Counted from the first letter of the stretch, positions 5,585 through 38,681 are shown. The stretch is 59,757 nt of DNA from Candidatus Melainabacteria bacterium 17Bon1m (GCA_032128875.1 JAVLKG010000019.1:1-59757), one strand, 5' to 3'. A program made the numbers and translations. Notes: generated by a model from the sequence alone, not told the origin.

Positions 5585-5602
5585 AGGTACTACCACTGGT
5601 TG

Positions 5603-13597: not shown

Positions 13598-13657
13598 TGT
13601 CGGCCTCCTTTCTCAATTAGGGGCTGCTTTGTAAAGTCGACGCCATGCGTCGACCGT

Positions 13658-14464: not shown

Positions 14465-14734
14465 GGTTTACCTCCTTTTCTTTTTTGTGAATTAGGTCAA
14501 CTTGACCAAATCCCGATGGCACGCCAGCCGGCAAGAACACCTCGCCGAACGATGCGGTCGGCTGTTAAGCCGCCGCCAGAGAAAGCGCGTACTCAGGGGG
14601 AAACGACCCGGCGCGCCGATGCGTGAGAGGGAGTTTGGAAACGCCCTGCCCATGCACCGTGCGCGAGGTCACTGTGTTGATGTCGCAAAGGTCGACGAAT
14701 GGCGTCCTCACACGGTGGACGCATGGCGTCGAGC

Positions 14735-15199
14735 CTACTTGGCCAGTTCGACGAACGTCGGAGCGTACGCCCCGTGCATCCAGTCGGCGGCTTCGTCGAG
14801 CGACATCGGTTGCACCGCTTCGGCGTGGGCGTCGAAGAACGCTTCCACCGATTCGCGGGTGTTGCCCACCGACGCCATCTTCATGACCAGTCCGGTCAGC
14901 TCCTCGTTGGAGGCGTTGACCTTGTAGCCATTGATGGCGAGGAAGATGAGCGCAGACGCCAAGCCTATCCGCTTGTTGCCCTGCTCGAAGACGTGGTCCC
15001 GGACGAGATACGTCAGGTAGCCAGCCGCCGCCGCATTGAGCGAACCAGTCAGATGGTGCGTCATGGCGGGCAGCTCGACGGCAGCAGCCAACTGACTGCT
15101 GTCGCGAATTCCCGGCACACCGCCCTTGTACTTGGCGAGTTGCTGTTCCTGCTGGGCGACCACTTCGTCGACCGTCAGGAAGCGGATTTCCTCTGTCAT
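14735..15199 (-). CDS. Fic/Doc family (death-on-curing) protein
   Basis: FLTVDEV, GGVPGIRD, HVFEQGNKRIG, FLAINGY. Confidence 0.9.
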   Translation of the reverse strand: MTEEIRFLTVDEVVAQQEQQLAKYKGGVPGIRDSSQLAAAVELPAMTHHLTGSLNAAAAGYLTYLVRDHVFEQGNKRIGLASALIFLAINGYKVNASNEELTGLVMKMASVGNTRESVEAFFDAHAEAVQPMSLDEAADWMHGAYAPTFVELAK

Positions 15200-15222
15200 A
15201 GAGAGTTCTCCTCGTCTTGAGA

Positions 15223-16329
15223 CTAGTCCAGCACCGGATACTTTCCGAGCAACGCCTTCACCTGGAGAGCGTCCAGGTTGGGGTTGTCTTCGAGAATCCG
15301 CACCACTTTGACGACGACTTCGGGCAGGCGAAAACTGATGGGTCCTCCGCCGTCGATGAGGACATCAGGCTTGCAGCCAGGCATCTTCTGCGCCGATGAA
15401 TAGCTGCCGGCCTTGAGACCGACCGCAATCACCGATGGAAAAGCCGCCGGCTCGACGATGTACGTGTCATCGATGTGGTCGAGAAAACGAGCGTCGCCCG
15501 TCGCCAACCAGCATTCGAAGCCGCGTTCACCGACTGCTCCGTCCTTGAGCTTGACGACGAGTGTCACACGACCCACGCCTTCGAGCTTGAACTGGAGCTG
15601 CTTGCGCCCGTTCCAGAAGTTGACCGGAACATGCGCGCCGTCCTGCCGCAACACCAGAGAGTCGCCGCGCCAGACTTCCAGAATCCAGTCGTCTTGCGCG
15701 TCCGATGAATTCTCATCGACAGCGCCGGCGACCTTCGTCCAGAAGTTGTAGCTCGTCGGCTCCTTCTGCTCCACTGCAATTGCAGTCGCCGTGTTGTCGA
15801 CGACGCTGAATACTGCGTGGGCGCAACGTCCGTCACCGGGGCCGGCAGCCGCCACGATGACGTGTCCGGGCTTGCCTTCGCCGACTACTTTGGCGAACTG
15901 GAACGCATCCCAGCCCGTGCCATCGGCAGCGTGGAAGACTCGCCCGAATGAGAAGTTGGCGACGGACGCCAGACCATGCAGTTGGCACAGACGCACCGCC
16001 CACAGGTAAGCTTCCGTCCATCCGTCCGACACTGGCTTGCCTTCGCTCCAGGTCGTGCGGATGATGCCTTCTTCGGGGTCATGCGAGCGGATGAGCACCA
16101 CCGGCACATCGGAATCCAGAGCCGTCAGCGCCTTGAGCACGAATGTTCCGTGCTTGTGCGGGTCGCCGGCAATGGCACCGAGGTCGGTGGCATCCGTCAC
16201 ATAGGGATTGCCGATTACGCATCGGCGTTGCACCAGGTCGTACACCCCGAGGATACGCGTGGCACCCGCCAGCGAATCCGGGGAGAACCCGGTGTCTGCG
16301 ATGATTACCGCAGCTTTCCGTTTTTCCAT
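15223..16329 (-). CDS. Divergent S8 subtilase-like protein
   Basis: IADTG (Asp), HKHGT (His), NFSFG, AAAGP, EPA..VIAVG, KPDV, ISFRLP (Ser). Confidence 0.75.
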   Translation of the reverse strand: MEKRKAAVIIADTGFSPDSLAGATRILGVYDLVQRRCVIGNPYVTDATDLGAIAGDPHKHGTFVLKALTALDSDVPVVLIRSHDPEEGIIRTTWSEGKPVSDGWTEAYLWAVRLCQLHGLASVANFSFGRVFHAADGTGWDAFQFAKVVGEGKPGHVIVAAAGPGDGRCAHAVFSVVDNTATAIAVEQKEPTSYNFWTKVAGAVDENSSDAQDDWILEVWRGDSLVLRQDGAHVPVNFWNGRKQLQFKLEGVGRVTLVVKLKDGAVGERGFECWLATGDARFLDHIDDTYIVEPAAFPSVIAVGLKAGSYSSAQKMPGCKPDVLIDGGGPISFRLPEVVVKVVRILEDNPNLDALQVKALLGKYPVLD

Positions 16330-16383
16330 GGTTCCTCCTAGATTTAGTTAGCAAGTGCGCCACAGCAAGGGTTGAACCTGCTG

Positions 16384-16611
16384 CTACACAGGCTCGACCG
16401 TTGCCGTCAGCGTGTACCTGCCCTTGCCTTCGTCGTAGAAAGCGCCGGAGAATGCGTCGGCATGCCGTTCGCAGAACGACGCCCGCTCATCCGCCTCTTC
16501 TTTCGACTTGAAGTGACGCGCATCAGCCTTGCTATCGGCTTGAGTGCGCACGGACAGGGTTTCGTACCACTCCACATGACCGCGGCCATTGGAGAGTTTG
16601 ATTGCCCACAT
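16384..16611 (-). CDS. Hypothetical protein
   Basis: GAGGAG SD, 75 aa. Confidence 0.65.
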   Translation of the reverse strand: MWAIKLSNGRGHVEWYETLSVRTQADSKADARHFKSKEEADERASFCERHADAFSGAFYDEGKGRYTLTATVEPV

Positions 16612-16742
16612 AAAGGCTCCTCAGCAAGCGACTTTCGCCACCTGCGTGGATTTTGACAATGGCATCAGCCCAGCATCAGAAGCCGAAGCTACCGATGCCG
16701 GGCGCTGCCGCCGTATGAGTCACGTACGTGAGAAGGGGCGGT

Positions 16743-17216
16743 CTAGTTGCTCGCCCACTTGTCTCGTACGTGCTCCACCCTCACCGTCGCGGGCTCTTCC
16801 CAGCTCGAGACGATGTCGTGCACCATCAGCGCCGCACGTTCCGCGAAGAACTGCGAGCGATGCTTGCCGCCGGTGCAGCGGAAAGCGATGGTCACCGTAC
16901 CGTGGTTGTTGCCGCGCGCCTGATAGCTGTTCAGCAGTACGCCGAGCTGCTCCACGACACTGTCGAGAAGCTGCAAGGTTTCCGGCTGCTGCATCAGGTA
17001 CTCGGCAATCGCGACGTCACGCCCGGTGAGCGCGCGAAGCGAGTCGATGTAGTGCGGATTGGGAAGGCCGCTCACATCGATGACGAGCTGCGCATTGGCG
17101 ATGCGACGGCAGAGGCTGTTGACCTCGTCCTGCACATCGGCGCGCGCGTCTTCGAGCTGTTTGAGCCCGAAGGACATCACCACGACTTCCGTCGTATTCG
17201 GTCCGATTTTCGTCAT
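16743..17216 (-). CDS. Stand-alone RapZ C-terminal domain protein
   Basis: VMSFG, VIDVSGLPNPHY..LRALTGRD, TIAFRCTGGKHRS; no N-terminal P-loop domain. Confidence 0.88.
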   Translation of the reverse strand: MTKIGPNTTEVVVMSFGLKQLEDARADVQDEVNSLCRRIANAQLVIDVSGLPNPHYIDSLRALTGRDVAIAEYLMQQPETLQLLDSVVEQLGVLLNSYQARGNNHGTVTIAFRCTGGKHRSQFFAERAALMVHDIVSSWEEPATVRVEHVRDKWASN

Positions 17217-17294
17217 AGCTATTTCCTCCTGCTGAAACAAGAAGGCACGCCTTTCGGCATGCCCCTTGTCGTTTCGTTCAGGCGTTTGTGGCGC

Positions 17295-17609
17295 CTAGTT
17301 CACCGCTGCCGGGCTGTCGTCGTCGAAGAAGACGCACGGCTGATCGCCGCGCTGCATCTTCCCGAGAGCGAGCATCGCCAGCAGCCCTTCCGGCGGATTG
17401 CGGTCGTCGCCGTGCGAGACGTAGCCCGCCGGATGACCGATCAGCCGACCGATGTGCCCCTGCGGAACGCCGTAGTCGGCGCAGTTGAGGACGAGCATCT
17501 GGTCGCCCGTCTGGCGATGCGCTTCCGCTTCGAGAGCGGCAGGCATCTCGCTGCGCCCGACCGACGTCACGCCCAGTGCCAGCACCATTGCAGTTTTGCC
17601 GTTTTGCAT
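17295..17609 (-). CDS. Degenerate ClpA/B second AAA+ domain fragment
   Basis: LGVTSVGRSEMPAAL resembles LGPTGVGKTELAKAL; RLIGHPAGYV resembles RLIGSPPGYV. Confidence 0.65.
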   Translation of the reverse strand: MQNGKTAMVLALGVTSVGRSEMPAALEAEAHRQTGDQMLVLNCADYGVPQGHIGRLIGHPAGYVSHGDDRNPPEGLLAMLALGKMQRGDQPCVFFDDDSPAAVN

Positions 17610-17749
17610 AGCTTTCACTCCGTTTCGTTGTTGAACAACCACACCAAAACGACCGTGCGTCGTCATGACGCACAGCCGTCCGGTGTTTGTGAGCAAGACC
17701 GCAGGCAGCGCTCTTCGGATTTCTCCGTCCAACGCCGCCTACACCAAGC

Positions 17750-18901
17750 TCACGCCGTTTTCTCCGCCCCACCCTTCGCAGGCACAGTGACCCGCAGAGG
17801 AATCAGGTTGGAGCCTCCGTTGCGCGCATCCTGCCACGCCTTGAAAGCCGGGCAAGAGTCGCGGTAGTCGCAGTCGAAGCAGTGACCGCCGGTGGTCGCA
17901 TCAGCATCGCGCTCCGCCCGCGCTTCTTCCATCACTGGAATCTGCGCAAGGTAGTGCTCCAACGCTTCCGCTCCCAATTCGGGCTTGTACCAGAACTCGA
18001 ACCCGTTGGAATCGGGCTCGCGATCCGGCTGACCGAACTGCTTCCGGTAGTCCGCCTTCAACTTCTCCACATTGGCACGTTCTTCCTCAGACACTTCGCC
18101 GAGGAATTGCGCAGCCAGCCTAGAGGCCTGGTGGAAGTCCCGAGTCTGCTCGGCCACCATTGCGAAGAAGAACAACTGCGTACGCACACGCTCGTACTTG
18201 CGAATCTGCCTTTTGAGCTTCGACGCAAGCTTCTTCACCACGATGAGCGCTTCTTCCGTCTTCGCGACTTCCTTGACCAGCACTTCGCGCTGATAAGGCA
18301 GCTTCTTCTCTGCAGCAGCGCGTGCGCTACCTTCGAGAGTTGCTACCTCCGCTTCCAGTTTCGAAACGCGAGCCGCAACAGCGTCCCGGTTCTTCTCCAG
18401 TCGCGCAAGTTCCATGCGAGCGAACGACAGCTCCATCTTGGTCTTCCAGACCACCCAGTCAGGATTCAGTCCGCTCTTGCGGTCGGTGATGCGCAGGTAC
18501 TGGCGACCGAGGTCGTCCTGTCCCCACCCAATCTTGTCCGACTTCATGACGAACTCCCGGTCAGTACCAGGAACGCGCCAACGCTCGAGCTTTTCCTTCT
18601 CCTCACCGATGACCGGTTCTTCTTCCTCGTCCTGCTGGTCCGCAACCTTGATCTGCGACTCCATCATCTTCTTCGCTTCCGCGCGCTGCTCTTCCGGCAG
18701 ACGCTCGACATGCTTTTCGACGATGGCGGCGCGCTCGGCGACGTCCTCAACAGCAACGGCTTCGTGAGTCCCATCACCGACCACCTTCTGCAGTGACGGC
18801 TGAGACTTGCGGGTTCCGATGCTCCGATACAGATACCGCAGGTGGCACACGAGCCACGCCGCGAAATCCGATTCAGAAACTGTGAATGGCTTCTTATTCA
18901 T
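17750..18901 (-). CDS. PD-(D/E)XK nuclease, Cas4/AddB-like Fe-S type, with coiled-coil insertion
   Basis: S.S....WLVCHLRY, GDGTHE, KSDKI, ITDRKSG, QLFFFA, CFDCDYRDSC. Confidence 0.8.
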   Translation of the reverse strand: MNKKPFTVSESDFAAWLVCHLRYLYRSIGTRKSQPSLQKVVGDGTHEAVAVEDVAERAAIVEKHVERLPEEQRAEAKKMMESQIKVADQQDEEEEPVIGEEKEKLERWRVPGTDREFVMKSDKIGWGQDDLGRQYLRITDRKSGLNPDWVVWKTKMELSFARMELARLEKNRDAVAARVSKLEAEVATLEGSARAAAEKKLPYQREVLVKEVAKTEEALIVVKKLASKLKRQIRKYERVRTQLFFFAMVAEQTRDFHQASRLAAQFLGEVSEEERANVEKLKADYRKQFGQPDREPDSNGFEFWYKPELGAEALEHYLAQIPVMEEARAERDADATTGGHCFDCDYRDSCPAFKAWQDARNGGSNLIPLRVTVPAKGGAEKTA

Positions 18902-19088
18902 GGCTGGTTACCTCCTTTCGGTCTGTTTGGTTGTTGAAAACGAAGCCCGTCGCAGCACTTCGGAAGACCGGACCGAAGCTGTGTGCGGGAATCGTGGAAA
19001 CTCTTGTTGCATGGTCACGAGTTCGTCGAGCTTGGCTGTTACGCCACGCCGACATCTGATGACCAGCAATCGTGCTGAATGCATACAT
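18894..19088 (-). CDS. Small hypothetical protein, first ORF of cluster
   Basis: AAGGAGG 7 nt before ATG at 19088; stop overlaps nuclease start. Confidence 0.45.
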   Translation of the reverse strand: MYAFSTIAGHQMSAWRNSQARRTRDHATRVSTIPAHSFGPVFRSAATGFVFNNQTDRKEVTSHE

Positions 19089-26412: not shown

Positions 26413-27180
26413 ATGATGCTATCTATAAGAAATCTGCTGACACTCTCGCTTATCTCGACTGGCATTTTTTCTACTGGTCCAGTTCGTTCCCTAGAACTAA
26501 AAGAAGCATGTGCCGGCGCAGATCTGCCAACCAATTTTTCTGCCTACCGTAAAAATATGCTCGACCGTTTCGAAGATAATTTGCCGCTAAACACTCCAGT
26601 CCCGAAAGAACCAGTTATTCGGTTTTTCCTCACAAATGATGGCTTTATCAGGGATCTATCACTACAAAAATCATCGGGACGGCGCGCCACAGATCTGGCT
26701 TGCATAGATGCGATCCTTTGTTCGTCGCCGCTGCCGCCCCCACCTCTTTTGCGTACTGCACTACCACCACCTCCACTAAACGAACTTCTCCCGCCGGACT
26801 CGTACGGCTGGGGCATTTATAAATTCTCCTTTGAAAAAAGAAAGGCTGCAAAGATGGTTCGGGTCTATACCAACGCTGATGGTAAGGTCCGATCAATGAA
26901 AGTGCTTGAGGGAGACAACGCAGCAAAGTTTCACTTCAAAATAATTCCTAATGAGGTTCAATACCGTTATCCTGGACTTTTTACTTCGAAGGAACTCAGT
27001 TCCACATCAAACTTGTTTCCCATTAAGACACCTACGGCAAGCCATCTCGAAGATGCCCGCTTTCAGTGGGCAGTTTTTTACAAGAATCATCCAAGTGCGT
27101 CGAAAGAAGAGGTGACGAGAAGAGGGCGTGAAATCATAGAGCACTACTTCCCTGTCAAGAAAACTACGGCTTCTCAATGA
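26413..27180 (+). CDS. Exported TonB C-terminal-like domain protein
   Basis: Signal-like N-terminus; F.L..DG.I.DLSLQKSSG..ATDLACIDAI..SSPLPPPP. Confidence 0.7.
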   Translation: MMLSIRNLLTLSLISTGIFSTGPVRSLELKEACAGADLPTNFSAYRKNMLDRFEDNLPLNTPVPKEPVIRFFLTNDGFIRDLSLQKSSGRRATDLACIDAILCSSPLPPPPLLRTALPPPPLNELLPPDSYGWGIYKFSFEKRKAAKMVRVYTNADGKVRSMKVLEGDNAAKFHFKIIPNEVQYRYPGLFTSKELSSTSNLFPIKTPTASHLEDARFQWAVFYKNHPSASKEEVTRRGREIIEHYFPVKKTTASQ

Positions 27181-27222
27181 GAGTCAAACTGCTGTCAGGA
27201 TGAAGAGAAATGGCCCAGGCTC

Positions 27223-29364
27223 TTAAAGCCCAGTCGCGTCTCCTTTTTGGAAACCTTCAAGGAATCGAATTTCTGGATGCTTGATCTTCAACAATTGAAT
27301 ATCTCCTCGTTGCAGATACGGCGTCAGCGTGTACATGATGGTGCGCAGTTTCTTATTCTCCAACAACGCCTCGATACCTCGAGCGGACATATTTGTACCG
27401 CCCACAGCAATCGAAAGCAGATTGCGCATCTTGGAGAAATACTTCGCTGCTTTGTCTTCGATGTGAATGCTTTCAACGTTGAGAAACAGTAGGTTTGAAT
27501 CCACCATCGGAGCAAAGCTTTCATCGTTCACCCCGGTCACAGCACGCAGATCGAGATATTGCAGATGCTCATCATCTGCAAGAAATCTGATACTTAAAGG
27601 CGTCAAAGTTGTTCCGGAAATCTCCAGCTTCTTCAGAGAAGGCATGATGGTGAAATACGGAATCGCTTTGTCGGTCAAGCGTTCGCACCAGCTGGCACTG
27701 ATATCATTGACGGTCTTGCACTTGGAGATTGCGGCGGCGCCAACATCATCAAGCTCAGAACTGGTGAAAGTTACGTGTTTTAGCTGCGGTAGCCTTGTGA
27801 GCCAGATCAAGTTGGGATTGTCGATGTCACAACCGGTCATGTCGAGGTGTCTGATCCACTTCGCCCTGGCAATGGCGCGCAGAGCCAACTCGCTCACAAA
27901 GATAAAGCGCATTTGCATTTTGCCGCTCTTCTCTTCAACCTTGAGCAGTTTTAAAATGGTGTCTTTCGCGTCCTCAGGCTTTGGTGAATTGTTCTCCAGA
28001 GTTTTGACAAACTGCTTAGCTTCGGCGACATGTATCAGTTTCAAATCCGGGTAGGTTCTATTCTTTGCGGCGACAGGCGCAGCAAGGGGCTGATCATCAG
28101 TTTTCTTAGGATTCAGGTGTACCGTGATTATGGACGAAGCACTCGCAGAAATTGCCACCACCAGCGCAGTCATCAAATAGAGAAACGGACGGGACACGCT
28201 GACCATCCCATTTTCGACGCCAGATTGGTTTATTTGCTTAACTTGCTTATTCTGCTTAGTTTGCTGATCAACTAAAACGGTGTTGGCGAGCAAAACCGGA
28301 TCAGCCAAAGTACGCTCGACGGCCGCTAAATCAACCGCAACTTGACCGAGATTTTGGTATCTTTCGTTCGCACGTTTGGCGAGCATCTTCGCAATGATCT
28401 GTTCAAGCACAGGCGGAAAGTCTTTACCCATGGATGCTTCTTTCAAGCTGGGCGGTGTTTCACCCATGTGCTGCATCATCGTCGATAAAGCATTAACACC
28501 CACAAAAGGCGTTGTACCTGTGAGCACTTCAAAGAAAACGCAGCCGAGCGAATAGATATCCGCGCGTTGATCCACCGGGCTACCCGAACACTGCTCCGGG
28601 CTCATGTAGAGCGGGCTGCCGAACACCTCTCCAGTGCGTGTGAGCGCCTGAATTTCACTCGCTTCGAGCTGTGTAAATTTGGCGATACCAAAATCAACTA
28701 TCTTGACTCTGCCTTCATCGGAGGCAGACAGTCCATCGACAAGCATAATGTTGCTGGGTTTTATGTCCCGATGTATAACTCCGCGCTCGTGCGCGTATCC
28801 AAGCCCGAAGCAAATCCGCAGAAAAATTGGCACAGCTTCGTCAACCGTGAGCGTGCCGTGCTTTTCGACCAGGTGTGCCAAGCTCTGCCCGCTGACATAG
28901 TCCATGACCAGGAAAGGAACGCGTTGGTCGAGCAAGCCAAAGTCATGAACGGAAATCAGGTTAGGATGGTCGATACCAAATGCAGCGCGCGCCTCGTGTT
29001 GAAAGCGACGCACAGTGACGTCTGTTGCGCTGCGACCATGCAAAATCTTCAGTGCAAGTTCTTTTCCGAGAAAAATTTGCTCGACTTTGTAGACCATGCC
29101 CATGCCACCGTACCCGACCAAAGACTGGACACGATAACGTTCGCCTACAATGTCGCCTGGTTTTAGACACCCAAATACGTCAGCAGCAGGATCGAAAGAT
29201 TCGAGCAGCCCGGCCGGGCCGCCCATCACGAGCGATGAGCCGTTTTGAAAGGACGAGCCAGTCGTAGAATCTGAGGCGTAGGGCGAAGACGAGCCAACAA
29301 CCTGCCCGGACGGCGTCTTGTTCAAAGCCGAAAAATCGGCATTGGGGGTATTAGAACCGGCCAT
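27223..29364 (-). CDS. Membrane Ser/Thr protein kinase with C-terminal leucine-rich repeats
   Basis: GYGGMG, ALK, HRDIKPSN, DFG, GSPLYMSPE; one TM; LxxLxLxxxxI repeats. Confidence 0.93.
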   Translation of the reverse strand: MAGSNTPNADFSALNKTPSGQVVGSSSPYASDSTTGSSFQNGSSLVMGGPAGLLESFDPAADVFGCLKPGDIVGERYRVQSLVGYGGMGMVYKVEQIFLGKELALKILHGRSATDVTVRRFQHEARAAFGIDHPNLISVHDFGLLDQRVPFLVMDYVSGQSLAHLVEKHGTLTVDEAVPIFLRICFGLGYAHERGVIHRDIKPSNIMLVDGLSASDEGRVKIVDFGIAKFTQLEASEIQALTRTGEVFGSPLYMSPEQCSGSPVDQRADIYSLGCVFFEVLTGTTPFVGVNALSTMMQHMGETPPSLKEASMGKDFPPVLEQIIAKMLAKRANERYQNLGQVAVDLAAVERTLADPVLLANTVLVDQQTKQNKQVKQINQSGVENGMVSVSRPFLYLMTALVVAISASASSIITVHLNPKKTDDQPLAAPVAAKNRTYPDLKLIHVAEAKQFVKTLENNSPKPEDAKDTILKLLKVEEKSGKMQMRFIFVSELALRAIARAKWIRHLDMTGCDIDNPNLIWLTRLPQLKHVTFTSSELDDVGAAAISKCKTVNDISASWCERLTDKAIPYFTIMPSLKKLEISGTTLTPLSIRFLADDEHLQYLDLRAVTGVNDESFAPMVDSNLLFLNVESIHIEDKAAKYFSKMRNLLSIAVGGTNMSARGIEALLENKKLRTIMYTLTPYLQRGDIQLLKIKHPEIRFLEGFQKGDATGL

Positions 29365-29490
29365 ACGGCTACCTCAAAACGCGCCTCAAGCGAGGCAGCA
29401 TCTGGTTGTTTCAGTAGTAAGTGGATTATGTGATGGTAGAGGTAGCTTAAGTATACGAATCAAGCGTGACTTGAACGTGACGACCAAAAT

Positions 29491-30030
29491 CTAAAATCGC
29501 TCGCCCCAAACAGTAGGGCGCATAATTCCAATGATAAATCCAACTGGAACGAACAACGAACTGGCAATGTCAGTCAACGCATCTAAAATTCCGTACTGAG
29601 CGCTCATGTGAAATATCGCCTGGGTAAGCGTTTCGACCATTATGAATGGCAAAAAACCATATGGAGAAAACGACATTCCAATCAAAACGCCAAAGACAAT
29701 TGTTGTTCCAACTCCTCTGCCCATCTTGTAATCGATCACTCGCGCCAAAAGGCGGCCAATGATGATGCCCAAGAAGTAAGCGAGGATACAAGTAAGAAAA
29801 GGGACGCCTATAAATGGCAGTATCCAGCCGCCAACAAATCCAGCCACTCCGCAGATGGCCAAAGTCTTAGCAACAATGAGTGGGGTAATCGAGGTAAGAG
29901 GATTCTTCACGTTGCCGCAAGAATCGCACCGAAAGCCGACCGGGCATTGAACCATGCATTTGCCGCAGATGACAGCACTGCAGTCGATGCATGTTAGTTT
30001 CGAATCGCCGCACGAATGTTTGCTTATCAC
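29491..30030 (-). CDS. B-box-like zinc-finger membrane protein
   Basis: CIDCSAVICGKC...PVGFRCDSC followed by about 4 TM helices. Confidence 0.75.
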   Translation of the reverse strand: MISKHSCGDSKLTCIDCSAVICGKCMVQCPVGFRCDSCGNVKNPLTSITPLIVAKTLAICGVAGFVGGWILPFIGVPFLTCILAYFLGIIIGRLLARVIDYKMGRGVGTTIVFGVLIGMSFSPYGFLPFIMVETLTQAIFHMSAQYGILDALTDIASSLFVPVGFIIGIMRPTVWGERF

Positions 30031-30252
30031 GCTGACCTTACTTCTGCGCTAATACAAGGACTCATCATCTCACAAACGATTGCACTCGTCACACTGTTAC
30101 ATGCAATAGTATAAGCAGTTCCAAGCAAATAAACCATGGCGGCTTGCAGACAGAGACGGCGAAGTGCGCTATCTCCAACTGCAAGCCAGTCCAGTTATTG
30201 CTTAGTCGAGACGATGCTGATATAGCAGCATTTAGTGACGGACGGGGGCAGA

Positions 30253-30298
30253 GCGGTGCAGCCGCACTGAATCAGAGACTCAGCGACGACTGCACCGC
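30253..30298 (-). terminator. Stem-loop downstream of the Ubl operon
   Basis: gcggtgcag...ctgcaccgc 9-bp inverted repeat about 20 nt after stop at 30320. Confidence 0.4.
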
Positions 30299-30319
30299 AT
30301 ACTGCTATTAACGACTAGT

Positions 30320-31174
30320 CTACCAGCGACGAGGCCAGAGGTTGACGTAATTGCCAAGCTCGCTGCTGCCCGCGTTTTCGATATGCTGGATTGCCAGATC
30401 GACAACAACGGTAAGCTCGAGGCGGGCGGTCAATTCCGCCATGGGTTGAAGCGTATCGCAGAGGCAAGGGGCGCCATCCGCGAGTACGTTGGGAGCATTC
30501 ATCCCGGCTTTGAAGCCGTCGACGCGCTTGTCGCGGTTGAACCAGCGCACAACGCCGTTCTTTCCGCTCAGGTCGATGAGGATGGTGAAACGACCAATCT
30601 CGTGGTCATGGTTGGTCTTCGGATCGCTTGCCGTAAGGAGATCCGTCCTGACGATGACAGTGCTGCCGACAACGCGCACTGACTCCACATGCGGTGCCGA
30701 CTTGAGCGACTCGAATTCAGCAGCGAGCCGATCGCGACGCTCTGCCACAGCGTTTGCCTCAGCAGCAAAAGCTTCTTTGCGCCAAACGGTGAACATGCCG
30801 GCCGTCGCTGCGAAGAATTTCTTGCGAAGCTTGTCGGCAGCTTTCTCGGCTTGTTTCGTCAGCTTCTCGATGCGCTTCGCGCACACCTTGATGTAACGAG
30901 CGCGCTCGTTGTTGTCGGTTATCGGCGTGCGGCGCGGCGCCAATGCAGGCACACGAATCTTCTCGCTGAGCCGCATGGCGACAATGCCTTCGTACTTCGA
31001 GGCAGTATCCGATTGCACGGCGTCGGCTCCGAGAAGTTCGAGCATAGACTGGAGATGCTGCGAGTCGATGAGGATGGTGTCCGTCTTCTTGTCCAGCAGC
31101 TGGAAAGGAATGCCTGCGTCCGTAAGGCGACGACGTTCGGCTGCCCCGAATTCGGGGAAGGACAGCTTGGTCAT
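30320..31174 (-). CDS. Coiled-coil + prokaryotic E2 (UBC-like) protein, copy B
   Basis: APNVLADGAPCL resembles E2 HPNV..xG.ICL active site; ATGA overlap with upstream paralog; start MTKLSF. Confidence 0.72.
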   Translation of the reverse strand: MTKLSFPEFGAAERRRLTDAGIPFQLLDKKTDTILIDSQHLQSMLELLGADAVQSDTASKYEGIVAMRLSEKIRVPALAPRRTPITDNNERARYIKVCAKRIEKLTKQAEKAADKLRKKFFAATAGMFTVWRKEAFAAEANAVAERRDRLAAEFESLKSAPHVESVRVVGSTVIVRTDLLTASDPKTNHDHEIGRFTILIDLSGKNGVVRWFNRDKRVDGFKAGMNAPNVLADGAPCLCDTLQPMAELTARLELTVVVDLAIQHIENAGSSELGNYVNLWPRRW

Positions 31175-32388
31175 GCCGCACCTCCTCTGACTTTCGGCCA
31201 CTTGTGAATGTACTTGTATGTGCGCGTGTCTTCCGGATTGACCGTTTCGACAAACGCGATTGCCAGCTTGGCGGCGTCGGCGAATTGACGCTCTGCGATC
31301 AATTTCTTGAACCAGGGAGCGGTATTGCCGAGGCAAGCCTTGCCATTTGCATACACGTGCAGAGACATCATCTTGTCGGCATAGCCGTTGACCTGCCGAG
31401 TCAGATTCTTCCAGCGCACCGATTCACCGCTCTTGAGGGGGATGCGGATACGGAAGCGACCCATTTCGTAAACGTCGCCCTTCGCAGGGTCAGTGCAGTA
31501 GAGCGTCTCCGTCTCCAGCTCGATGTACTTGTCGGAGACCGAAACAGACCGAACTTTGCGCACCTGGCAAAGCAGGTCATATTCTTTGCCTAGCTCGTGA
31601 GTCGCCTGAGAGCGCATGCGGACGCTCTCCAGCTCTGCGACGCGCGACTCATCGCTGAGACGCTGCCACGCAGCCAAGGGCTCTTCGCGCTCGTCAGAGC
31701 CCTCTACCTTCTTGGCTTTGGGAGCCTTTTGCGCCAGACTGCGCTCGACAGCTTTGTCCAACTCAGCGACGAAATGCTCGGCAGTGCCGGTGGCAGCAGC
31801 CGAGCGGATGAGGTCGGCGACCTGCGCCATCACGTAAGCGAAAACGCGCGCGCCACCGAAGATTCCGTAGAGATTCGGATCGATCAGAAAGTAGATCGAC
31901 TCGTCTTGATACTCTGCGACAATGTTGCCATTGCCGTCGAGAATCGGCGTTCCTATGCCGGTGAAAGCATAGACTTCGCCGTCCCAGACCCGTTCCTGCC
32001 CGAAGACTTCTTTCGGCGCCTCGAGACACTTTTCGCCACGCGGCGAGTATCCGAGGTAGATGTGAAACTGACCGTAAGCGCGCCCTTCTTTGGGCTCGCC
32101 TCGCCTGATGCCGATTGGCTTGTCCACAACGATCCCAAGAATTTTGCGCGCGTAGGTTCTGTAGAACTTTATTTCGCGCAGCTTGAAATGTTTGCCGTAA
32201 AACTTCGGATCTCGCACCGGCTGCTCGTGCTGAGGGGCCGGCAGCCCGTCGGGATAGAGCCTCTTTATCGTCGAGCTGATCTCGGCGCTAGTGAACAACC
32301 GGCGCGAAATCATGATGAGAAGAGGAATACCGACGACGGTCGAGATTATCCAGTGGGTCGTAATAAATGCCCAGATTGCTAGCATCAT
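31171..32388 (-). CDS. Membrane-anchored prokaryotic E2 (UBC-like) protein, copy A
   Basis: N-terminal TM WIISTVVGIPLLIMI-SRR; C-terminal SLHVYANGKACLGN; colinear with copy B. Confidence 0.72.
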   Translation of the reverse strand: MMLAIWAFITTHWIISTVVGIPLLIMISRRLFTSAEISSTIKRLYPDGLPAPQHEQPVRDPKFYGKHFKLREIKFYRTYARKILGIVVDKPIGIRRGEPKEGRAYGQFHIYLGYSPRGEKCLEAPKEVFGQERVWDGEVYAFTGIGTPILDGNGNIVAEYQDESIYFLIDPNLYGIFGGARVFAYVMAQVADLIRSAAATGTAEHFVAELDKAVERSLAQKAPKAKKVEGSDEREEPLAAWQRLSDESRVAELESVRMRSQATHELGKEYDLLCQVRKVRSVSVSDKYIELETETLYCTDPAKGDVYEMGRFRIRIPLKSGESVRWKNLTRQVNGYADKMMSLHVYANGKACLGNTAPWFKKLIAERQFADAAKLAIAFVETVNPEDTRTYKYIHKWPKVRGGAA

Positions 32389-32461
32389 TACCTCCATTTG
32401 GGGCGATGCAATGCATCAACCCTGAGAGTTGCAGCGACGCAGAGCGCCGCCTGCTCCAGAT

Positions 32462-33160
32462 TTACTTGAACCGTTTGGTGACGATAGTCGGATCGCGCAG
32501 TCCGTAGAGAAGCTCGTTGTCCTGCGGACCTTCGACTTTCTTCTCCTGAATGGCGAACCAGGTGATCAGCTGCCACACGGCAAGTCCGGAGAGGAACTCC
32601 GCCGTCGGACCGACCGAGATGCTGGCGCCGCAAGCGGAAACTTCCGCCACTTCGTCGCCATAATCGGAAGCCGCTTCCCATCCACGAACGTGTGCGGGGG
32701 TCGTCGGATTGATCACGTAGATGCGCCCCTGGTCGGAACCCATACGGGTCTCGATCATCAGCTTGGTGCGCGACTTGTACTTGATGCCGGCGTTCCAGAT
32801 CTGCTTGCGCGACGACATGGAGTCGGTGAGAAGGAAGACCACCTCGCCCAGAACCTGCTTTCCGTCCACGCGTTCGGCGTGTGTGGTGATGTCGATGCCG
32901 GTCTGGCGCTTCACGATTTCCTTCAGCGCTTCGACCTTGAGCTTGCCGACATCGTCCATGCCGAATGCCTGGTTAGGCACGTTGTGCGCCTCGACGGTGT
33001 CGTCGTCCCAGACATGGATGTTCTCGATACCGAGCTTGGCAAGGCTGAGAACGATGCGCGAACCGGACGCGCCGACGCCGATGACGTCCACGCGGCGAGC
33101 GCCGAAATCATCAGGAGAAAAGACATCGATGTGTCTTGTGATATTGAGAGGCATCGTCAC
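32462..33160 (-). CDS. ThiF-family E1-like adenylyltransferase
   Basis: IGVGASGS, WDDDTVEAHNVPNQ, GKLKVEAL, LTDS..SR; single Cys (EVSACG, C177). Confidence 0.92.
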   Translation of the reverse strand: MTMPLNITRHIDVFSPDDFGARRVDVIGVGASGSRIVLSLAKLGIENIHVWDDDTVEAHNVPNQAFGMDDVGKLKVEALKEIVKRQTGIDITTHAERVDGKQVLGEVVFLLTDSMSSRKQIWNAGIKYKSRTKLMIETRMGSDQGRIYVINPTTPAHVRGWEAASDYGDEVAEVSACGASISVGPTAEFLSGLAVWQLITWFAIQEKKVEGPQDNELLYGLRDPTIVTKRFK

Positions 33161-34251
33161 TCTCCTTGCGCGTCAGGCGCTTTGGTGGTTGCGGAATTGG
33201 CGGCGGAAGCGGCGGCAGAGCCCTCCTCGAGCGCGCCACCGCCGGTGGCACCAGGAGGCAGAGCCTCGGGCGGTCCGGGAATCTGCGGCGCTGGCTGCGT
33301 CCCGGATTTCTCCTGCGCACGAGCGCGCGCGAGTTCTTCCAGCAGCGGAACTTCGCCGTAGCCGTTGCCGAAATCGGGCAGATAGCTGATGGTCACTTTG
33401 TCGCGAATCTCGGCTTCCACCTCGGCGCGCAGTTCGGCAGAGATGTGCAGCGGTCCTTTGGTCTGCGTGCGCGGCTTCGATACCGGGTCGGTGGAGAACG
33501 TCTCTAGCAGGCGCTTGGTGCCTTTGACGACCTTGTCTTTGAGGCCGTTCAAGCTCTCGCTCACGGCGGACAAACCGGTCTTCGGCTCTTCTTCTTCGAC
33601 CGCGGGCTGGGGTGACCAGATTTCCCACGGCACGTCGATGAAGTTAACCTTCTGCTCGTAGACGAACACGTCGAACGTCGCGCGCCCGAGCTTGTTCATG
33701 ATGCCGCGGACATACCAGTCGCAGCCCTGCTCACCGAACTCACGCATGGTCTCTTCGTCTTGAGGCGAAGGCGCGGTGTCCATACGCACATGCGAATGCC
33801 CCCAGAAGAACAACCGGCGCGTATCTTCACGGCGACCGGCTTTCATCAAAGACGAGTAGAGCTCGCTTTGCCCTTCGATCGAAATCTTCGCGTGCGCCGC
33901 ACCAGCGGTTTGACGCAGAAGGAAGACGTGCTCGATGTAGTAATCCCCCGTCTCCAGGCGCTCCGCGGTGCCCAGCCAACCGACCTCCAGGCGCGCCAGC
34001 TCAACGTAGAGCTGCATGCGCTTGTAAGCTTCGGGTGAGATGAGCACACGCGGAACCTTGCCCGTGTACTTGATCCGCGTGTAAGGCTGATGGGGAGTCA
34101 GCGGCGCGTCGGGCAAATTGAGATTGTCGAAGTACGCCCCGGCGCGACCATAGCCGCCCCGAGGGCCTCCGGATGTATATGGATACCGGCGCGTGGGTTG
34201 TTCGGCACGTTCGGTTCCAGAGAGTGTTTCATCTGACTTTTCGTCGGACAT
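33157..34251 (-). CDS. JAB/MPN+ metalloprotease (deubiquitinase-like)
   Basis: LEVGWLG (Glu) and HSHVRMDTAPSPQD = HxHx7Sx2D. Confidence 0.9.
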   Translation of the reverse strand: MSDEKSDETLSGTERAEQPTRRYPYTSGGPRGGYGRAGAYFDNLNLPDAPLTPHQPYTRIKYTGKVPRVLISPEAYKRMQLYVELARLEVGWLGTAERLETGDYYIEHVFLLRQTAGAAHAKISIEGQSELYSSLMKAGRREDTRRLFFWGHSHVRMDTAPSPQDEETMREFGEQGCDWYVRGIMNKLGRATFDVFVYEQKVNFIDVPWEIWSPQPAVEEEEPKTGLSAVSESLNGLKDKVVKGTKRLLETFSTDPVSKPRTQTKGPLHISAELRAEVEAEIRDKVTISYLPDFGNGYGEVPLLEELARARAQEKSGTQPAPQIPGPPEALPPGATGGGALEEGSAAASAANSATTKAPDAQGE

Positions 34252-34339
34252 AGGTGTCTCCTATCGGTAAGTCATGCACAGCGCAGCAACGTCTGACCGC
34301 TGCCTGCGCCATGCTTGGTTGCGCAGATAGGAAACGGGC

Positions 34340-34840
34340 TTAGTTGCCCAGAACCGAATTGCCCTGAACCGGCTTCAACAGGAGCACTTCCTGCCCGGCC
34401 TTGACGAGCGTCTTCATCGTGGCGGCGTCGCCGTCCACGCGGACCTCATGACCCTTGGGGTCGATGTTCGCCTTAGCGAGCAGGTCTGCGACCGAGACGT
34501 TGGAGCCCTTCTCAATAGCGATGTCCTGCTTCTTGCCGATCAGAAAGCCGACGGTGACAGTCGACTGCGGCTCGTCGCCGGACTTCTGCAGATTGGCGAG
34601 ATTGCCCTGGACCGGCTTCAGCAGAAGCACTTCCTGCCCCGGATTGACCAGCGTCTTCATGGTGGCATTTTCGCCGTCGACGCGGACGTCGTGACCCTTC
34701 GGATCGATTTCCGCCTTGGCCAGAAGGTCCTTGACCGACGTGGCGGAGCCCTTCTCGACTTCGACTTCCTTGCGCTTGCCGATGAGGAAACCGACGGTGA
34801 CCGTGGGATTGCCCTTGCCGAGCGAGAGTTTGTCTGACAT
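34340..34840 (-). CDS. Tandem di-ubiquitin-like (beta-grasp) protein
   Basis: Two 68-aa units, 53/68 identical, each SVxDLL..VRVDG..L..GQEVLLLKPVQGN. Confidence 0.88.
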   Translation of the reverse strand: MSDKLSLGKGNPTVTVGFLIGKRKEVEVEKGSATSVKDLLAKAEIDPKGHDVRVDGENATMKTLVNPGQEVLLLKPVQGNLANLQKSGDEPQSTVTVGFLIGKKQDIAIEKGSNVSVADLLAKANIDPKGHEVRVDGDAATMKTLVKAGQEVLLLKPVQGNSVLGN

Positions 34841-35412
34841 GTGAATTCTCCGATGTTTGAGGCAAGCTGAACGCTTGCAGGTTGAAGTTGTCTCGGCCTA
34901 AAGTCGCTTCATAAGGTCCACGAGCTCCAGTCGCTTCACTACCGCCAATGCACCTTCGAATAGTGCATGAGCGCCTGAGTGTACGCCACCACCTGCGGTG
35001 ATGAAACTACACTAAGAAAAGGAGGAAGGAAACGTACTGGTTTGTGGAGACTGGAAGGTAAAGGGGAAACAACTGGACTTTCAGTATTCAAAAAATGAGC
35101 CCACTAAAAACACTTCACAGCCTCTAAGAAACGAGCTACGAAACAGTACTTCATGACGCTATGTTGAGGAATTGATCTGTGTAAAACGGCTTTCACTGGC
35201 CTGCCTTGGTTCTTGCTTTTTGCGGGACGGTCGCGCGAACTAGAGCGAGCCCTCAGGTAAAGATTCGCAAACAGCCGACACCACGTAGAGGTTCATCAAT
35301 TCTGGCTCTTCAAAGTGAGTAAGGGCTAAGAAAGTGGTATGAGTTATTATGACAATAGTGGCTCATTTTGGTGACTGGAAATCCCGTTTTAGACATTCGA
35401 GCCAGCGAGTGC

Positions 35413-36195
35413 ATGCAAATAATTCCACCTATTCAAAAATCCCTTTCGGTTTTTGCCATTTTAATCGCAGCAAACATGCCGGCAAAACCAGCGGCAGCAG
35501 GCGACCCAGGTTGGCGTATCGACCAATACACGAACGCGCAAGGTAACATGAATGTTTCCATGACTGCGCGGGCAATTGAAATACACCTGCCTAAGCAAAG
35601 GTACCGAATTTACAGCAGCGCGCCCAACTGGAATGTCATTTATATCAACGAACAAATGGGCACCTACATGGACTTCCCGCACGACAAGTTCATCGGCTCG
35701 ATTATGGGACGCCTCGGCACTCAGCTAGGCAATGATATCCAAATGCTTTCCCTGCCAAAGCCTGTCATAGTGAAAGAAGGAGAGCTTGAATACGCGACTT
35801 ACGACCGAAATTTAAAAATCACTGACGAAGAACGCCGCAAGCTCAAAATCAAGGGAAGTGCCACGGTTTTGTATGCGCCACGAACGATACGCGCGAAGTA
35901 TTTGCGCTTGCCCAGCATTCCCAACCAAGCAAAAGAACTAGTCTGCAAAGTTGCCTGCGTGCCAATGAGCTTCGACTACCCGATCAGTTTCAATTGCATT
36001 GATGGCTTCAAAGAAAATCTGCGCGTGCTGTCCACGACGCTGACACGCAAGGAAAAAGCTGTGTCGATGACGCCGCCAAGCTTGAAAAGTTTAAGGCAAG
36101 TAAAAACCGAGCACGAACTCTACAGCCACGCGAAAGTAGACGATGTCTTCGAACTTTTCGGCGACACCCAGAACGAAGGGAAGAAAGGCAAATAA
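35413..36195 (+). CDS. Hypothetical exported protein
   Basis: Signal-peptide-like SLSVFAILIAANMPAKPAAA. Confidence 0.7.
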   Translation: MQIIPPIQKSLSVFAILIAANMPAKPAAAGDPGWRIDQYTNAQGNMNVSMTARAIEIHLPKQRYRIYSSAPNWNVIYINEQMGTYMDFPHDKFIGSIMGRLGTQLGNDIQMLSLPKPVIVKEGELEYATYDRNLKITDEERRKLKIKGSATVLYAPRTIRAKYLRLPSIPNQAKELVCKVACVPMSFDYPISFNCIDGFKENLRVLSTTLTRKEKAVSMTPPSLKSLRQVKTEHELYSHAKVDDVFELFGDTQNEGKKGK

Positions 36196-36384
36196 TCACG
36201 GCACCAAGCTCTTCCCATTGCCTTTACCTGCTCGCGTCAAGCACACCTTTTGCGCGCCTACCGAACAACCTCCAGCCGCCCACCAGCCGAGCTTTCCGGG
36301 TCTGTGATGTGATTGTGATGTTGCCGGCTTAGTCTTTCGAAAACCACACGGATTCCCCCGGTGGGTGCCCAACGAGGTCTGCAG

Positions 36385-37095
36385 ATGACTGAAGCAGCAG
36401 CTTCCGCTTTTCACGCACAATATATGCCCCCGTTCTCTCAGCAGCCGATTGCTCCCCGCACGCCGGAAGTTACGCGCGGCGCTGTCCTAACTCTCGAGCA
36501 AGAACTTATCGTGACCAAACATCTCGCCGAGGTCGCACCTCTAGAAACTATTCGCCTGGAAGCTTTCGACAAGGCACTGCGCATAATGCAGAAGCTTTTG
36601 CGAGGAACGACGACAAATTCCATGCCCACAGCGATGAAGCTGAAGGCTTGGGAAGTTCCACTTCTTCAATATGCTCTCGAATATTCGGCGAAATCGCCCG
36701 AAAACAGACGCATTGTCGTGCGCAGATTGGTCGAGAATTTGGAAACCGGCACCGGCTTCTTCTCAATCAATCGCTCAAAGCAAGGGCTGAAAGTCATTGC
36801 GAAGAAAACAGGTTTGTCGACCTTAGAAGACGAGCTGCAATCCGATAAAGACGAAGTACGAAGAACCGCTGCACATCTCCTTGGATGGATGAAGCACGAG
36901 AAATCAGTACTTCCACTTCTTAGAGCATACTGCCAGGGCGCACGTTCTGATCGTCGCATTGTCGGGCGTGTTCTCAAGCTTCATTACAGCCATCTTGCTC
37001 CTTTCTATGCGCACCGATACATGCCCGAATTTCATTCGACACTCGTCGCGCTCATAGAAAGCGAAAAACAATCAGAAGAGTCGCAATTAGACTAA
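36385..37095 (+). CDS. HEAT-repeat-containing hypothetical protein
   Basis: LQSDKDEVRRTAAHLLG...SVLPLL PBS/HEAT-like unit. Confidence 0.65.
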   Translation: MTEAAASAFHAQYMPPFSQQPIAPRTPEVTRGAVLTLEQELIVTKHLAEVAPLETIRLEAFDKALRIMQKLLRGTTTNSMPTAMKLKAWEVPLLQYALEYSAKSPENRRIVVRRLVENLETGTGFFSINRSKQGLKVIAKKTGLSTLEDELQSDKDEVRRTAAHLLGWMKHEKSVLPLLRAYCQGARSDRRIVGRVLKLHYSHLAPFYAHRYMPEFHSTLVALIESEKQSEESQLD

Positions 37096-37171
37096 TTGCA
37101 AGTGTTGCGGCAACGCACACTTAATTGATGCGATGAGACGCACAAGTTTCTAAAGTTAGCCGATCCGAATT

Positions 37172-37210
37172 GAACAGTCGCTCAAAAGGCGGCTGTTTCG
37201 CTTTTCTTTG
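37172..37210 (+). terminator. Putative intrinsic terminator
   Basis: gaacagtcgc-tcaaaag-gcggctgttt followed by cgcttttcttt. Confidence 0.5.
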
Positions 37211-37424
37211 ATAAAACGGCGGAGCGCCGGCTTCCAGCCGGCATAGTCTTTCTATTTGCTTGGAAAACCTTGCGCTTGCTATACCCGCACCTGCTGCTCA
37301 TGCGGTCGCAAGAAGCTCACCGCATGGGCAAAATACGAAGACAAAAGACGTGAATGTGATGTGAATGTTATGTGCTGAGTGCAAATTGAATGCACCCCCC
37401 GAGCACATACGGAGTTCATTGACC

Positions 37425-38681
37425 ATGACAAAGTCGTCAGACCCTATCATCTCAGAAGTTTCACGCCTGGCTTCCGAGGGACAACCCAACAGCTATGACC
37501 GTGCATATCAAGCTTTGCAAAACGGTTTTGACAATTTCCTTGAAACCGAACGCCTTTGTTCTCCCAGCAATCAAGTAGATCAAACGAAAGCCGATAACTA
37601 CTGGAAAGACATCAACAATGAACTGAGAGACAGAGGATTTCTCCCCGGACTTTCCGTCGCATATTTGAGAGCAAACTTCGATCGCCTCGATACTCAAGGA
37701 CGCAAAGCGGGCGACCCGTCTGGTCCTGACGGCATGCTGACACACAGCGAAATCAGACAAGAAGAAGGACGCAACCAAGTTTTCGCACGTCAATTCGATC
37801 AGCAAGAAGGCAAGAGAGACTTCTTCTTCGAAGTGGCAAAAATGTCGTCCAATGGGAATACAAGAAAGGTTATCGAACACGAAGACATCGACAAATACGA
37901 GCGCAAGCAAGATAAGACAAACCGCAAACACGAGAAGCAAGAAGCTGCGCGCGAATCCATGACGCCACTTTTCGAAGAAACCGAATGTGGCAAACCCCTT
38001 CTGGAATACCTCAACTCTCGAACCGTGAACGGACGCGTCACCGTGCCCGAGATGGAGCGCTTTGTCAGAGAATGCGATCGCCGTCAAAACGATCAAGATG
38101 CTACGTTCAATGACAAAAACCGCGACTACGTCCAACACATTCTAAACGGCGACATGTCGTGGAACAGAGCCGGTGATGGTTTCCAAATCAACAAACTGGC
38201 GCGCAAAGGCGGCTTCGATGCGCTCAACATGAAAGACTTCAGTGCACATGAAGATTTGAAGACAAACTACGAATCAGCAAAAGAAGTGTTCGCAGAAAAG
38301 ACTGCTCCGACACAAGAAGACTTCACACCAAAGACCAAGTGCGAAGAAATCGAAGAAGAAGCAGCTAAGAACAAAGTAGAAAAAGTGGAAAAGACGGACA
38401 AGGTGGGCGTTGTTGATGTGCCGGATGGCATCTTCACAGTGCGCCAAGGCGAAGGCTACTGGCACGTTGCAAAACGCTTGCTCAGCCTCGACCCGACTCA
38501 CAAGCCAAACAACAACGAAATCATGCACTGCATGACTGCGATGATGACGCAAAACGCTGCTCACATGGCAGAGAAATTCCCGGGCTACACGCCCATGTTG
38601 CGTCCTGGAGATAAAGTGCATTGCGACATCAACTCGCTCTGCGATCAAGTCCCTGCAGCCAAGAAATACTTGCGCAAATAA
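37425..38681 (+). CDS. Hypothetical protein with C-terminal LysM-like domain
   Basis: FTVRQGEGYWHVAKRLL...MLRPGDKV. Confidence 0.65.
   Translation: MTKSSDPIISEVSRLASEGQPNSYDRAYQALQNGFDNFLETERLCSPSNQVDQTKADNYWKDINNELRDRGFLPGLSVAYLRANFDRLDTQGRKAGDPSGPDGMLTHSEIRQEEGRNQVFARQFDQQEGKRDFFFEVAKMSSNGNTRKVIEHEDIDKYERKQDKTNRKHEKQEAARESMTPLFEETECGKPLLEYLNSRTVNGRVTVPEMERFVRECDRRQNDQDATFNDKNRDYVQHILNGDMSWNRAGDGFQINKLARKGGFDALNMKDFSAHEDLKTNYESAKEVFAEKTAPTQEDFTPKTKCEEIEEEAAKNKVEKVEKTDKVGVVDVPDGIFTVRQGEGYWHVAKRLLSLDPTHKPNNNEIMHCMTAMMTQNAAHMAEKFPGYTPMLRPGDKVHCDINSLCDQVPAAKKYLRK

Follow-up and report, generated by a model that had tools for sequence, protein, structure and literature searches.

Ubiquitin-like protein conjugation in bacteria is a young field of research. 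The subject of this work is a cassette of five genes in a 59,757 nucleotide stretch of DNA (JAVLKG010000019.1:1-59757; here called the window, always meant at its full length) from Candidatus Melainabacteria bacterium 17Bon1m (GCA_032128875.1), whose lineage is a non-photosynthetic relative of the cyanobacteria. The cassette encodes a tandem ubiquitin-like (Ubl) tag, a JAB/JAMM metallopeptidase, a minimal activating enzyme (E1) and two paralogous proteins which resemble conjugating enzymes (E2). From its folds and motifs, the conservation of its catalytic residues and the linkage of its genes, all of which are observed here, we read it, with a probability of about 70%, as a complete cassette for ubiquitin-like protein conjugation, belonging to a family for which no database model exists.

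The bacterial systems Bil, Bub and Cap2/Cap3 are treated in two 2024 preprints (PMC11601596, PMC11601603), and what is said here of Bil and Bub rests on sections of these and on passages of PMC1779556. In Bil (BilABCD, Types I and II) the Ubl, the E2, the JAMM peptidase and the E1 are encoded by separate genes, the E1 is a multidomain protein with an inactive and an active adenylation domain and a Cys domain, and no E3 is present, so that the E2 is presumed to choose the targets (PMC11601596). Bub (class 6E, Iyer et al. 2006) has poly-Ubl proteins with between one and three beta-grasp domains and in some cases an inactive E2/RWD-like partner (PMC1779556, PMC11601603). In addition, it fuses Ubl to E2 and JAB or E2 to E1, encodes a DUF6527 serine protease and relies on Ser/Tyr oxyester chemistry (PMC11601596). 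In the PRTRC systems (NCBIfam TIGR03734-03742), Ubl and E2-like genes accompany a small ThiF-type E1, and the whole is carried by mobile DNA.

The cassette resembles Bil in its separate genes and in the lack of an E3, and differs from the available description in that its E1 is one ThiF domain of 232 amino acids (aa) and not a multidomain protein; it differs further in its pair of an E2 and a partner resembling a ubiquitin E2 variant (UEV), in the Gly-Asn end of its tag and in its membrane anchor. With Bub, as far as described, it shares poly-tags and a probably inactive E2-like partner, whereas its genes are separate and its cysteines invariant, and no DUF6527 domain was found among the five cassette and six flanking proteins scanned. 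With Type II CBASS it shares an E1 adenylation domain and a JAMM peptidase, but Cap2 is an E2-E1 fusion conjugating a CD-NTase, while here the enzymes are unfused and a dedicated Ubl is present; no CD-NTase family match was found among the cassette and flanking open reading frames (ORFs) scanned (positions 26413 to 38681), and the PADLOC 'E1-E2' models match only the E1 part (approximately 1e-13). Of the PRTRC models, TIGR03736 gives 39.1 bits on the E1 (cut-off 144.75) and no other reaches E<=1 on any of the five proteins. Among the PADLOC and NCBIfam defence models, which were not checked for Bil models, only the generic E1 part of CBASS/6A-MBL Cap2-type models and a weak JAB domain are matched. 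A literature search of titles and abstracts found no published description of the five-gene cassette. An earlier annotation made from the sequence alone (the first-pass annotation) had proposed a Ubl conjugation operon that may be of an undescribed class, for which an empty PADLOC search would be support. The predicted folds are as expected, PADLOC gives no system match and no cofactor genes were found among the flanking ORFs scanned, so that the proposal of a class outside the described models stands. The comparisons with Bil, Bub, Cap2/Cap3 and PRTRC place the cassette outside each of them, the distinction from Bil and Bub being drawn against the portions of the published descriptions cited above.

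Such a cassette would add a family with E2 and peptidase lineages of its own, the E2 pair being without any match in Pfam, NCBIfam, PADLOC or PHROGs and the peptidase barely detected by such libraries, and would further be distinguished by the Gly-Asn tag end, the E2/UEV-like pair and, in one of its branches, an obligate linkage to an AAA+ unfoldase.

ORF translation confirmed five minus-strand, co-oriented ORFs between 34840 and 30320, each at the place first annotated (Table 1). Two stop/start overlaps had also been noted, of which the ATGA shared by the E2 gene and its shorter paralogue (E2') at 31171-31174 is real; the other, at 33157-33160, holds only if the E1 begins at GTG 33160. The ATG at 33154, which has an AAGGAG 7 nucleotides (nt) ahead of it, is the more likely E1 start, and the peptidase-E1 spacing is then a gap of 2 nt and not a 4-nt overlap. 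The tag and peptidase genes are separated by 88 nt and the E1 and E2 genes by 64 nt. Since an orthologue with 92% identity is 404 aa long, the E2 probably starts at the ATG at 32385.

The tag protein matches Pfam ThiS (PF02597; E 1.4e-12, 48.4 bits, cut-off 22.5) in two stretches, in agreement with the tandem beta-grasp protein first proposed. The E1, described at the outset as a ThiF-type protein with one cysteine, matches Pfam ThiF (PF00899) with 68.9 bits (cut-off 28.1), and its single cysteine, Cys177, is invariant in 26/26 relatives. The columns of the glycine-rich nucleotide loop (GxGAxGS), an Asp and an Arg are likewise invariant. A profile alignment places Cys177 in the same column as Cys184 of E. 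coli ThiF, which we take to be the reactive residue of that enzyme. The best PDB sequence matches of the E1 are MccB, PaaA and ThiF, and it scores far below the cut-off of every NCBIfam equivalog concerned (ThiF, MoeB, SAMP E1 and PRTRC ThiF).

The peptidase carries an intact JAMM motif of the form E...HSHx7SxxD (E89, H152-S-H154-x7-S162-x2-D165), as annotated, and the pattern EVGW...FWGHSHVxMxxxPSxxD is invariant in its 19 aligned relatives. Its AlphaFold2 (AF2) model has a mean predicted local distance difference test score (pLDDT) of 72, with values above 90 in a core of about residues 60-215, followed by a C-terminal tail of low confidence. The MPN+ fold expected for it is borne out by 183 Foldseek matches in the PDB at E<=0.001; the best are BRCC36 and Rpn11 (3e-8 to 1e-7, probability 1.00), and the archaeal JAMM1 (PfJAMM1) is also found, the named matches spanning 3e-8 to 1e-6. 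Detection by sequence libraries is weak: PADLOC JAB gives E 0.0017, Pfam Prok-JAB detects 7/19 members (best E 0.026), and a profile search of the PDB sequences with the peptidase alignment returned only chance matches to ribosomal S13.

The two E2-like proteins are alike over some 136 C-terminal residues (32% identity, E 2e-16), which confirms their paralogy and defines a common domain of roughly 140 aa. A profile of this domain (A2), built from 16 copies, was run against 1.84 billion representative proteins and found 2479 at E<=0.001, 1416 at E<=1e-10 and 360 at E<=1e-30; with such numbers the family is neither rare nor private. This exhaustive search was needed, word-indexed searches having given just 12 and 11 relatives. 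None of 30 sampled A2 matches has a Pfam family at E<=1e-3, five of them showing only chance-level hits (E 0.002-0.008, below cut-off). In the PDB sequences the sole meaningful matches of A2 are the weak ones to UBE2A/Rad6 (E 0.6-0.9), and in the UBE2A profile alignment (E 0.6) the family's '...APHV...G.AC(L)GN' falls on the E2 'HPNV...G.IC(L)', with its cysteine in register with the catalytic one; the same search with the full-length E2 alignment returned coiled coils only.

The AF2 model of the E2 (408 aa, from 83 sequences; mean pLDDT 88.8) consists of an N-terminal hydrophobic helix, a beta-rich middle domain of about 130 aa (residues 60-195), a long coiled-coil helix (239-278) and a compact alpha/beta domain (260-403), predicted to be UBC-like, which carries Cys355. 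In a VIA-align comparison of the model with 48,161 chains every one of the 27 best rows is an E2/UBC-like chain, namely 25 E2 enzymes, one inactive variant and one RWD domain (Z 5.7-7.0, root mean square deviation 3.5-4.8 A over 104-124 residues), and Foldseek gives a weak list of mostly E2 enzymes with a probability of up to 0.87. The consistency of the fold matches and the cysteine in register, which alone carry the claim, lead us to read the common domain as a divergent UBC-fold domain of middling scores, as had been expected. The N-terminal segment of the E2 reaches a Kyte-Doolittle maximum of 1.89 (19-residue window) at residue 12. A comparable segment is present in 33 of 161 relatives (150 profile matches and 11 homologues of the shorter paralogue from a word-indexed search), and 29 of these have it in their first 35 residues. 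Relatives carry between one and five copies of the middle domain, whose likeness to glutamine-amidotransferase-like domains (Z 4.7-5.7) is too low for a name.

The shorter paralogue has a small N-terminal domain, a helical linker and the UBC-like domain, in which Cys237 is kept. In 30 E2 pairs (those of the window, of three orthologous loci, the genome's other three pairs, those of 20 further loci of the order and one phage pair; locus L039, whose record is that of L003, was left out) a cysteine occupies the aligned column of the upstream domain in 30/30 and of the downstream domain in 15/30, the residue being otherwise H, G, S, F, L, V or A. As many of the genomes are closely related, the counts do not represent independent events. 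Among 13 orthologues of the window's own 284-aa protein the cysteine is absent in two. The first-pass annotation had two paralogous E2-like Cys proteins; the paralogy holds, whereas the cysteine of the second protein is not conserved in the family. Because the upstream cysteine is always kept and the downstream one missing in half of the pairs, the 284-aa paralogue is probably a UEV-like partner of the E2, although the window's copy has Cys237. In the eukaryotic Ubc13-Mms2/UEV complexes an active E2 works with a paralogous, catalytically dispensable partner of E2 fold. The pair described here is alike in being an E2 with its paralogue, and different in that the partner keeps its cysteine in half of the pairs and that the pairing is predicted from the genes. 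E2 and E2' are fused in four loci (L041, L045, L047 and L054). A predicted complex of E2 residues 250-408 with residues 135-284 of the paralogue scored 0.24 against a mark of 0.32 and was used neither way.

The survey of gene neighbourhoods proposed at first annotation showed that the gene set recurs in orthologous loci, in further loci of the order and on viral contigs, which is more than chance. The E2 domain was found in 34 of 101 genomes of the order Obscuribacterales, with 2, 4, 6 or 8 matches each except in three fragmented assemblies (1, 5 and 7 matches), and in a sample of 201 genomes of the phylum it was present in this genome only. Three orthologous genome loci (L001-L003) carry the five-gene set in the order of the window (type A: tag, peptidase, E1, E2, E2'). 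Out of 20 further loci of the order 19 have the E2 pair, or its fusion, with JAB and E1, and a Ubl was detected in 17 of these. In type B (15 genomes, at least eight genera) the order is tag, E2, E2', peptidase and E1, followed in 15/15 loci by a two-ring AAA+ ATPase which is nearest to the ClpB and ClpA models, yet below both cut-offs. In type C the fused E2-E2' is followed by peptidase, E1 and tag, and in 2/4 loci a protein of about 750-840 aa without a family is encoded upstream. A tag system coupled to an AAA+ unfoldase is known from Pup-Mpa and from ubiquitin-proteasome/Cdc48. Type B is similar in its genetic coupling to such an ATPase, and the constant place of the ClpB-like gene behind the E1 suggests that tagged proteins may be handed to an unfoldase; it differs in that the unfoldase is only ClpB-like and no protease partner was found, and the window's own cassette shows no such coupling.

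The genome, whose assembly has 7.55 Mb in 35 contigs and a completeness of 93%, contains four E2 pairs, in the window, twice on contig 7 and as an orphan on contig 8. The contig 7 cluster has in its first part an E2 (620 aa), an E2' without the cysteine (293 aa), a gap of about 1.3 kb and a triple tag (253 aa), and in its second part an E2 (634 aa), an E2' (286 aa), a peptidase (588 aa), an E1 (229 aa) and a ClpB-like AAA+ protein (821 aa), the last being one of three Clp-type paralogues in the genome. The orphan pair of contig 8 is preceded by the gene of an 839-aa membrane/coiled-coil protein without a family, relatives of which precede the fused E2-E2' in L041 and L054; upstream there is also a 1558-aa protein in which YD/RHS-like repeats were recognised by eye.

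The E1 profile identified 36 viral loci (81 pattern matches examined, 37 confirmed), 27 of which combine E2 domain, JAB, E1 and Ubl; at the thresholds used, the other nine have peptidase and E1 only, or no E2 domain. Fifteen of the viral contigs measure 148-223 kb, two have completeness ratings of 99-100%, and a terminase match was found on one. Neighbours of the phage cassettes include ThyX, a Thg1-like enzyme, nucleotidyltransferases and a kinase-like ATPase. Nearly all phage cassettes have a single E2, the E2/E2' pair being the Obscuribacterales form. In a quick, midpoint-rooted E1 tree, whose root is thus not established (59 rows; identical rows and fragments below 150 aa dropped), types A (support 99), B (83) and C (28) lie inside a group of 31 rows (support 89) together with nine phage rows; the remaining phage rows are more divergent. 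In cultured mobile DNA a tblastn search with the E2 domain found nothing among 72,556 plasmid and 50,697 phage records, and the E1 has no match in the plasmids at 1e-8. An E1 relative of about 30% identity is held by 48 cultured-phage records; in the two examined, Xanthomonas phage PhiXhv-12 and Flavobacterium phage FpV4, our profiles found no E2 domain, peptidase or tag beside it. Look-alike clusters in the ESM Atlas, which were used as a lead only, are 50-82% viral. One phage cassette (L056) is split by an IS200/IS605-type transposase gene (phrog_506, E 5e-114) between the tag gene and the second E2 gene.

As many large phages carry the core cassette, their carriage of it points to a role in phage-host conflict or in phage development, and raises the question of what use a virus has for a tagging system of its own. 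The nearest competing explanation is anti-phage defence of the Bil or CBASS kind, in which phage or host proteins would be tagged upon infection. It is suggested by the defence role of the described bacterial Ubl systems (PMC11601596), by the patchy occurrence within the order, by the G+C content of the cassette block (0.56-0.62, against 0.47-0.52 in the DNA on either side) and by the four E2-pair copies of the genome. Against it, PADLOC matches only generic domains (E1 and JAB), the neighbouring ORFs scanned contain no defence genes, the same downstream neighbour recurs in four related loci, and the same cassette sits on the 36 viral contigs, near-complete ones among them. An anti-phage role, which had been offered as one possibility at first annotation, thus found no support, and we regard it as unlikely.

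In its end the tag departs from ThiS/MoaD-type Ubl proteins, which have a C-terminal Gly-Gly. Both repeats of the window's tag terminate in KPVQGN, and a tail of five residues (SVLGN) follows the second, the protein ending in ...QGNSVLGN. In a count of 67 distinct units, from which one partial match (L062:10375) was excluded, Gly-Asn ends all 35 bacterial units and 24 of the 32 phage units; the others end in Ser-Asn (three), Ala-Asn (one), Gly-Ala (three) and Gly-Gly (one). The tags are encoded as one to three head-to-tail units of roughly 70 aa, and in the phage poly-tags the following unit begins immediately behind the Asn. Of 43 different tag genes, 22 stop right behind the two-residue end motif and the remainder carry one to five extra residues or, occasionally, a longer extension. 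With units arranged head to tail and tails behind the end motif, processing of the precursor is needed; to judge from the sequence, the mature end could be Gly or Asn.

A chemistry of the MccB kind, in which the E1 would act on the C-terminal Asn via a succinimide to give a nucleotide-linked tag or an Asn-derived linkage instead of a standard thioester relay, seems improbable to us. MccB adenylates Asn-terminated peptides through a succinimide (PMC4010828), it is the best PDB sequence match of our E1 (2.5e-10 with the profile), and the Asn, last in the motif of every bacterial and of 28/32 phage units, is as conserved as the Gly before it, and about half of the tag genes stop right behind the end motif. 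However, the match covers only the nucleotide-binding part (E1 residues 12-98), the E1 lacks an extra N-terminal domain, four phage units end in Gly-Ala or Gly-Gly, and the invariant cysteines of E1 and E2 fit a thioester relay. A broader scenario, to which we likewise give little credence, would combine this activation at the C-terminal Asn with a phage-borne Ubl pathway, its domestication in the Obscuribacterales, the duplication that gave E2 and UEV, and the wiring to a Clp-type unfoldase; if true, it would be a bacterial system that independently follows the same logic of tagging and unfolding as ubiquitin-proteasome and Pup-Mpa. A sulfur-carrier or cofactor pathway, in which a ThiS/MoaD-type protein would serve ThiF/MoeB and no protein would be tagged, is hardly tenable, for although the tag matches ThiS and the E1 matches ThiF/MoeB models, the NCBIfam ThiF, MoeB and ThiS scores are all far below cut-off, the tag ends in Gly-Asn, the poly-tag precursors, the JAMM peptidase and the two E2-like proteins are always linked, and, as the first-pass annotation had argued in favour of protein conjugation, none of ThiG, ThiH, MoaE or a sulfurtransferase is encoded by the six flanking ORFs scanned.

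For the preferred reading, a ubiquitin-like protein-conjugation cassette, we infer the chemical steps, the place of cleavage, the E2/UEV complex and the targets as follows. The JAMM peptidase would cleave the tandem precursor, together with its short tail, at the conserved Gly-Asn motif, after Gly or after Asn, and release single beta-grasp tags. The ThiF-type E1 would adenylate the tag's C-terminus and load the tag onto Cys177, from where it would be moved to Cys355 of the membrane-anchored E2. The E2 and its UEV-like paralogue would then put it on targets, most likely on the inner side of the membrane or close to it, and its removal would probably also fall to the peptidase. Several points speak against this reading. 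For the E2 model Foldseek gave no match at E<=0.001, and the UBC scores are of a level (Z 7) attainable by models lacking a clear match. No unfoldase gene adjoins the window's own cassette, and the scanned flanking ORFs include no defence genes or otherwise informative neighbours. As the tag ends in Gly-Asn and not in Gly-Gly, canonical activation is not assured. The parts are small (an E1 of 230 aa, tag units of about 70 aa), so that reconstitution should be easy.

A scan for promoters and terminators found sites no commoner than in shuffled sequence. Three RNA-labelled libraries (runs X2-X4, window positions 28500-36500) contain the whole stretch, but they show DNA in the library and not transcription, since their contigs have the same size as those of the DNA run of the same sample (12,338 bases), span intergenic DNA and reach 137 kb.

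Table 1. Coordinates of the cassette genes, of the related clusters in the same genome and of other features mentioned in the text.
Feature	Record	Position	Strand	Basis or content
Tandem ubiquitin-like tag (Ubl2), 166 aa	window	34340..34840	-	Pfam ThiS PF02597, two repeats
JAB/JAMM (MPN+) metallopeptidase, 364 aa	window	33157..34251	-	motif, AF2/Foldseek
Minimal E1-like adenylating enzyme, 230-232 aa	window	32462..33160	-	Pfam ThiF
Membrane-anchored E2-like protein, 404-408 aa	window	31171..32397	-	UBC-like fold match, Cys355
Shorter E2-like paralogue, 284 aa	window	30320..31174	-	32% identity to E2 domain, Cys237
Contig 7 cluster (same genome)	L016	3356-16303	-	two E2 pairs, triple tag, peptidase, E1, ClpB-like
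Orphan E2 and Cys-less E2' on contig 8	L017	7405-12572	-	without tag, peptidase or E1
Protein with YD/RHS-like repeats, 1558 aa	L017	98-4774		upstream of orphan pair
IS200/IS605-type transposase	L056	4627-5727	-	phrog_506
Zinc-ribbon-like membrane protein, 179 aa	window	29491-30030	-	
Ser/Thr protein kinase, 713 aa	window	27223-29364	-	
PD-(D/E)XK nuclease-like gene	window	17750-18901	-	
Tyrosyl-tRNA synthetase gene	window	8313-9740	-	

The gene 290 nt downstream of the cassette, co-oriented with it, encodes a 179-aa protein whose N-terminal segment, rich in Cys, resembles a zinc ribbon and which also has several hydrophobic helices. It has no Pfam or NCBIfam match, and L001, L002 and L003 have homologues in the same position (E 1e-61 to 1e-82); it could be an accessory part of type A or merely syntenic. 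A gene at 27223-29364 encodes a Ser/Thr protein kinase that ends in a leucine-rich-repeat region and has a predicted transmembrane segment; its position in the orthologous loci is taken by ORFs comparable in length (714, 671 and 672 aa), the likeness being one of size and place. Elsewhere in the window, a 17-kb stretch (2000-19000) has a G+C content of approximately 0.60, compared to approximately 0.50 in the remainder, and 11 of the 16 ORFs scanned in it are without a Pfam match. It contains genes for a tyrosyl-tRNA synthetase and for a PD-(D/E)XK nuclease-like protein, and may be a foreign island.

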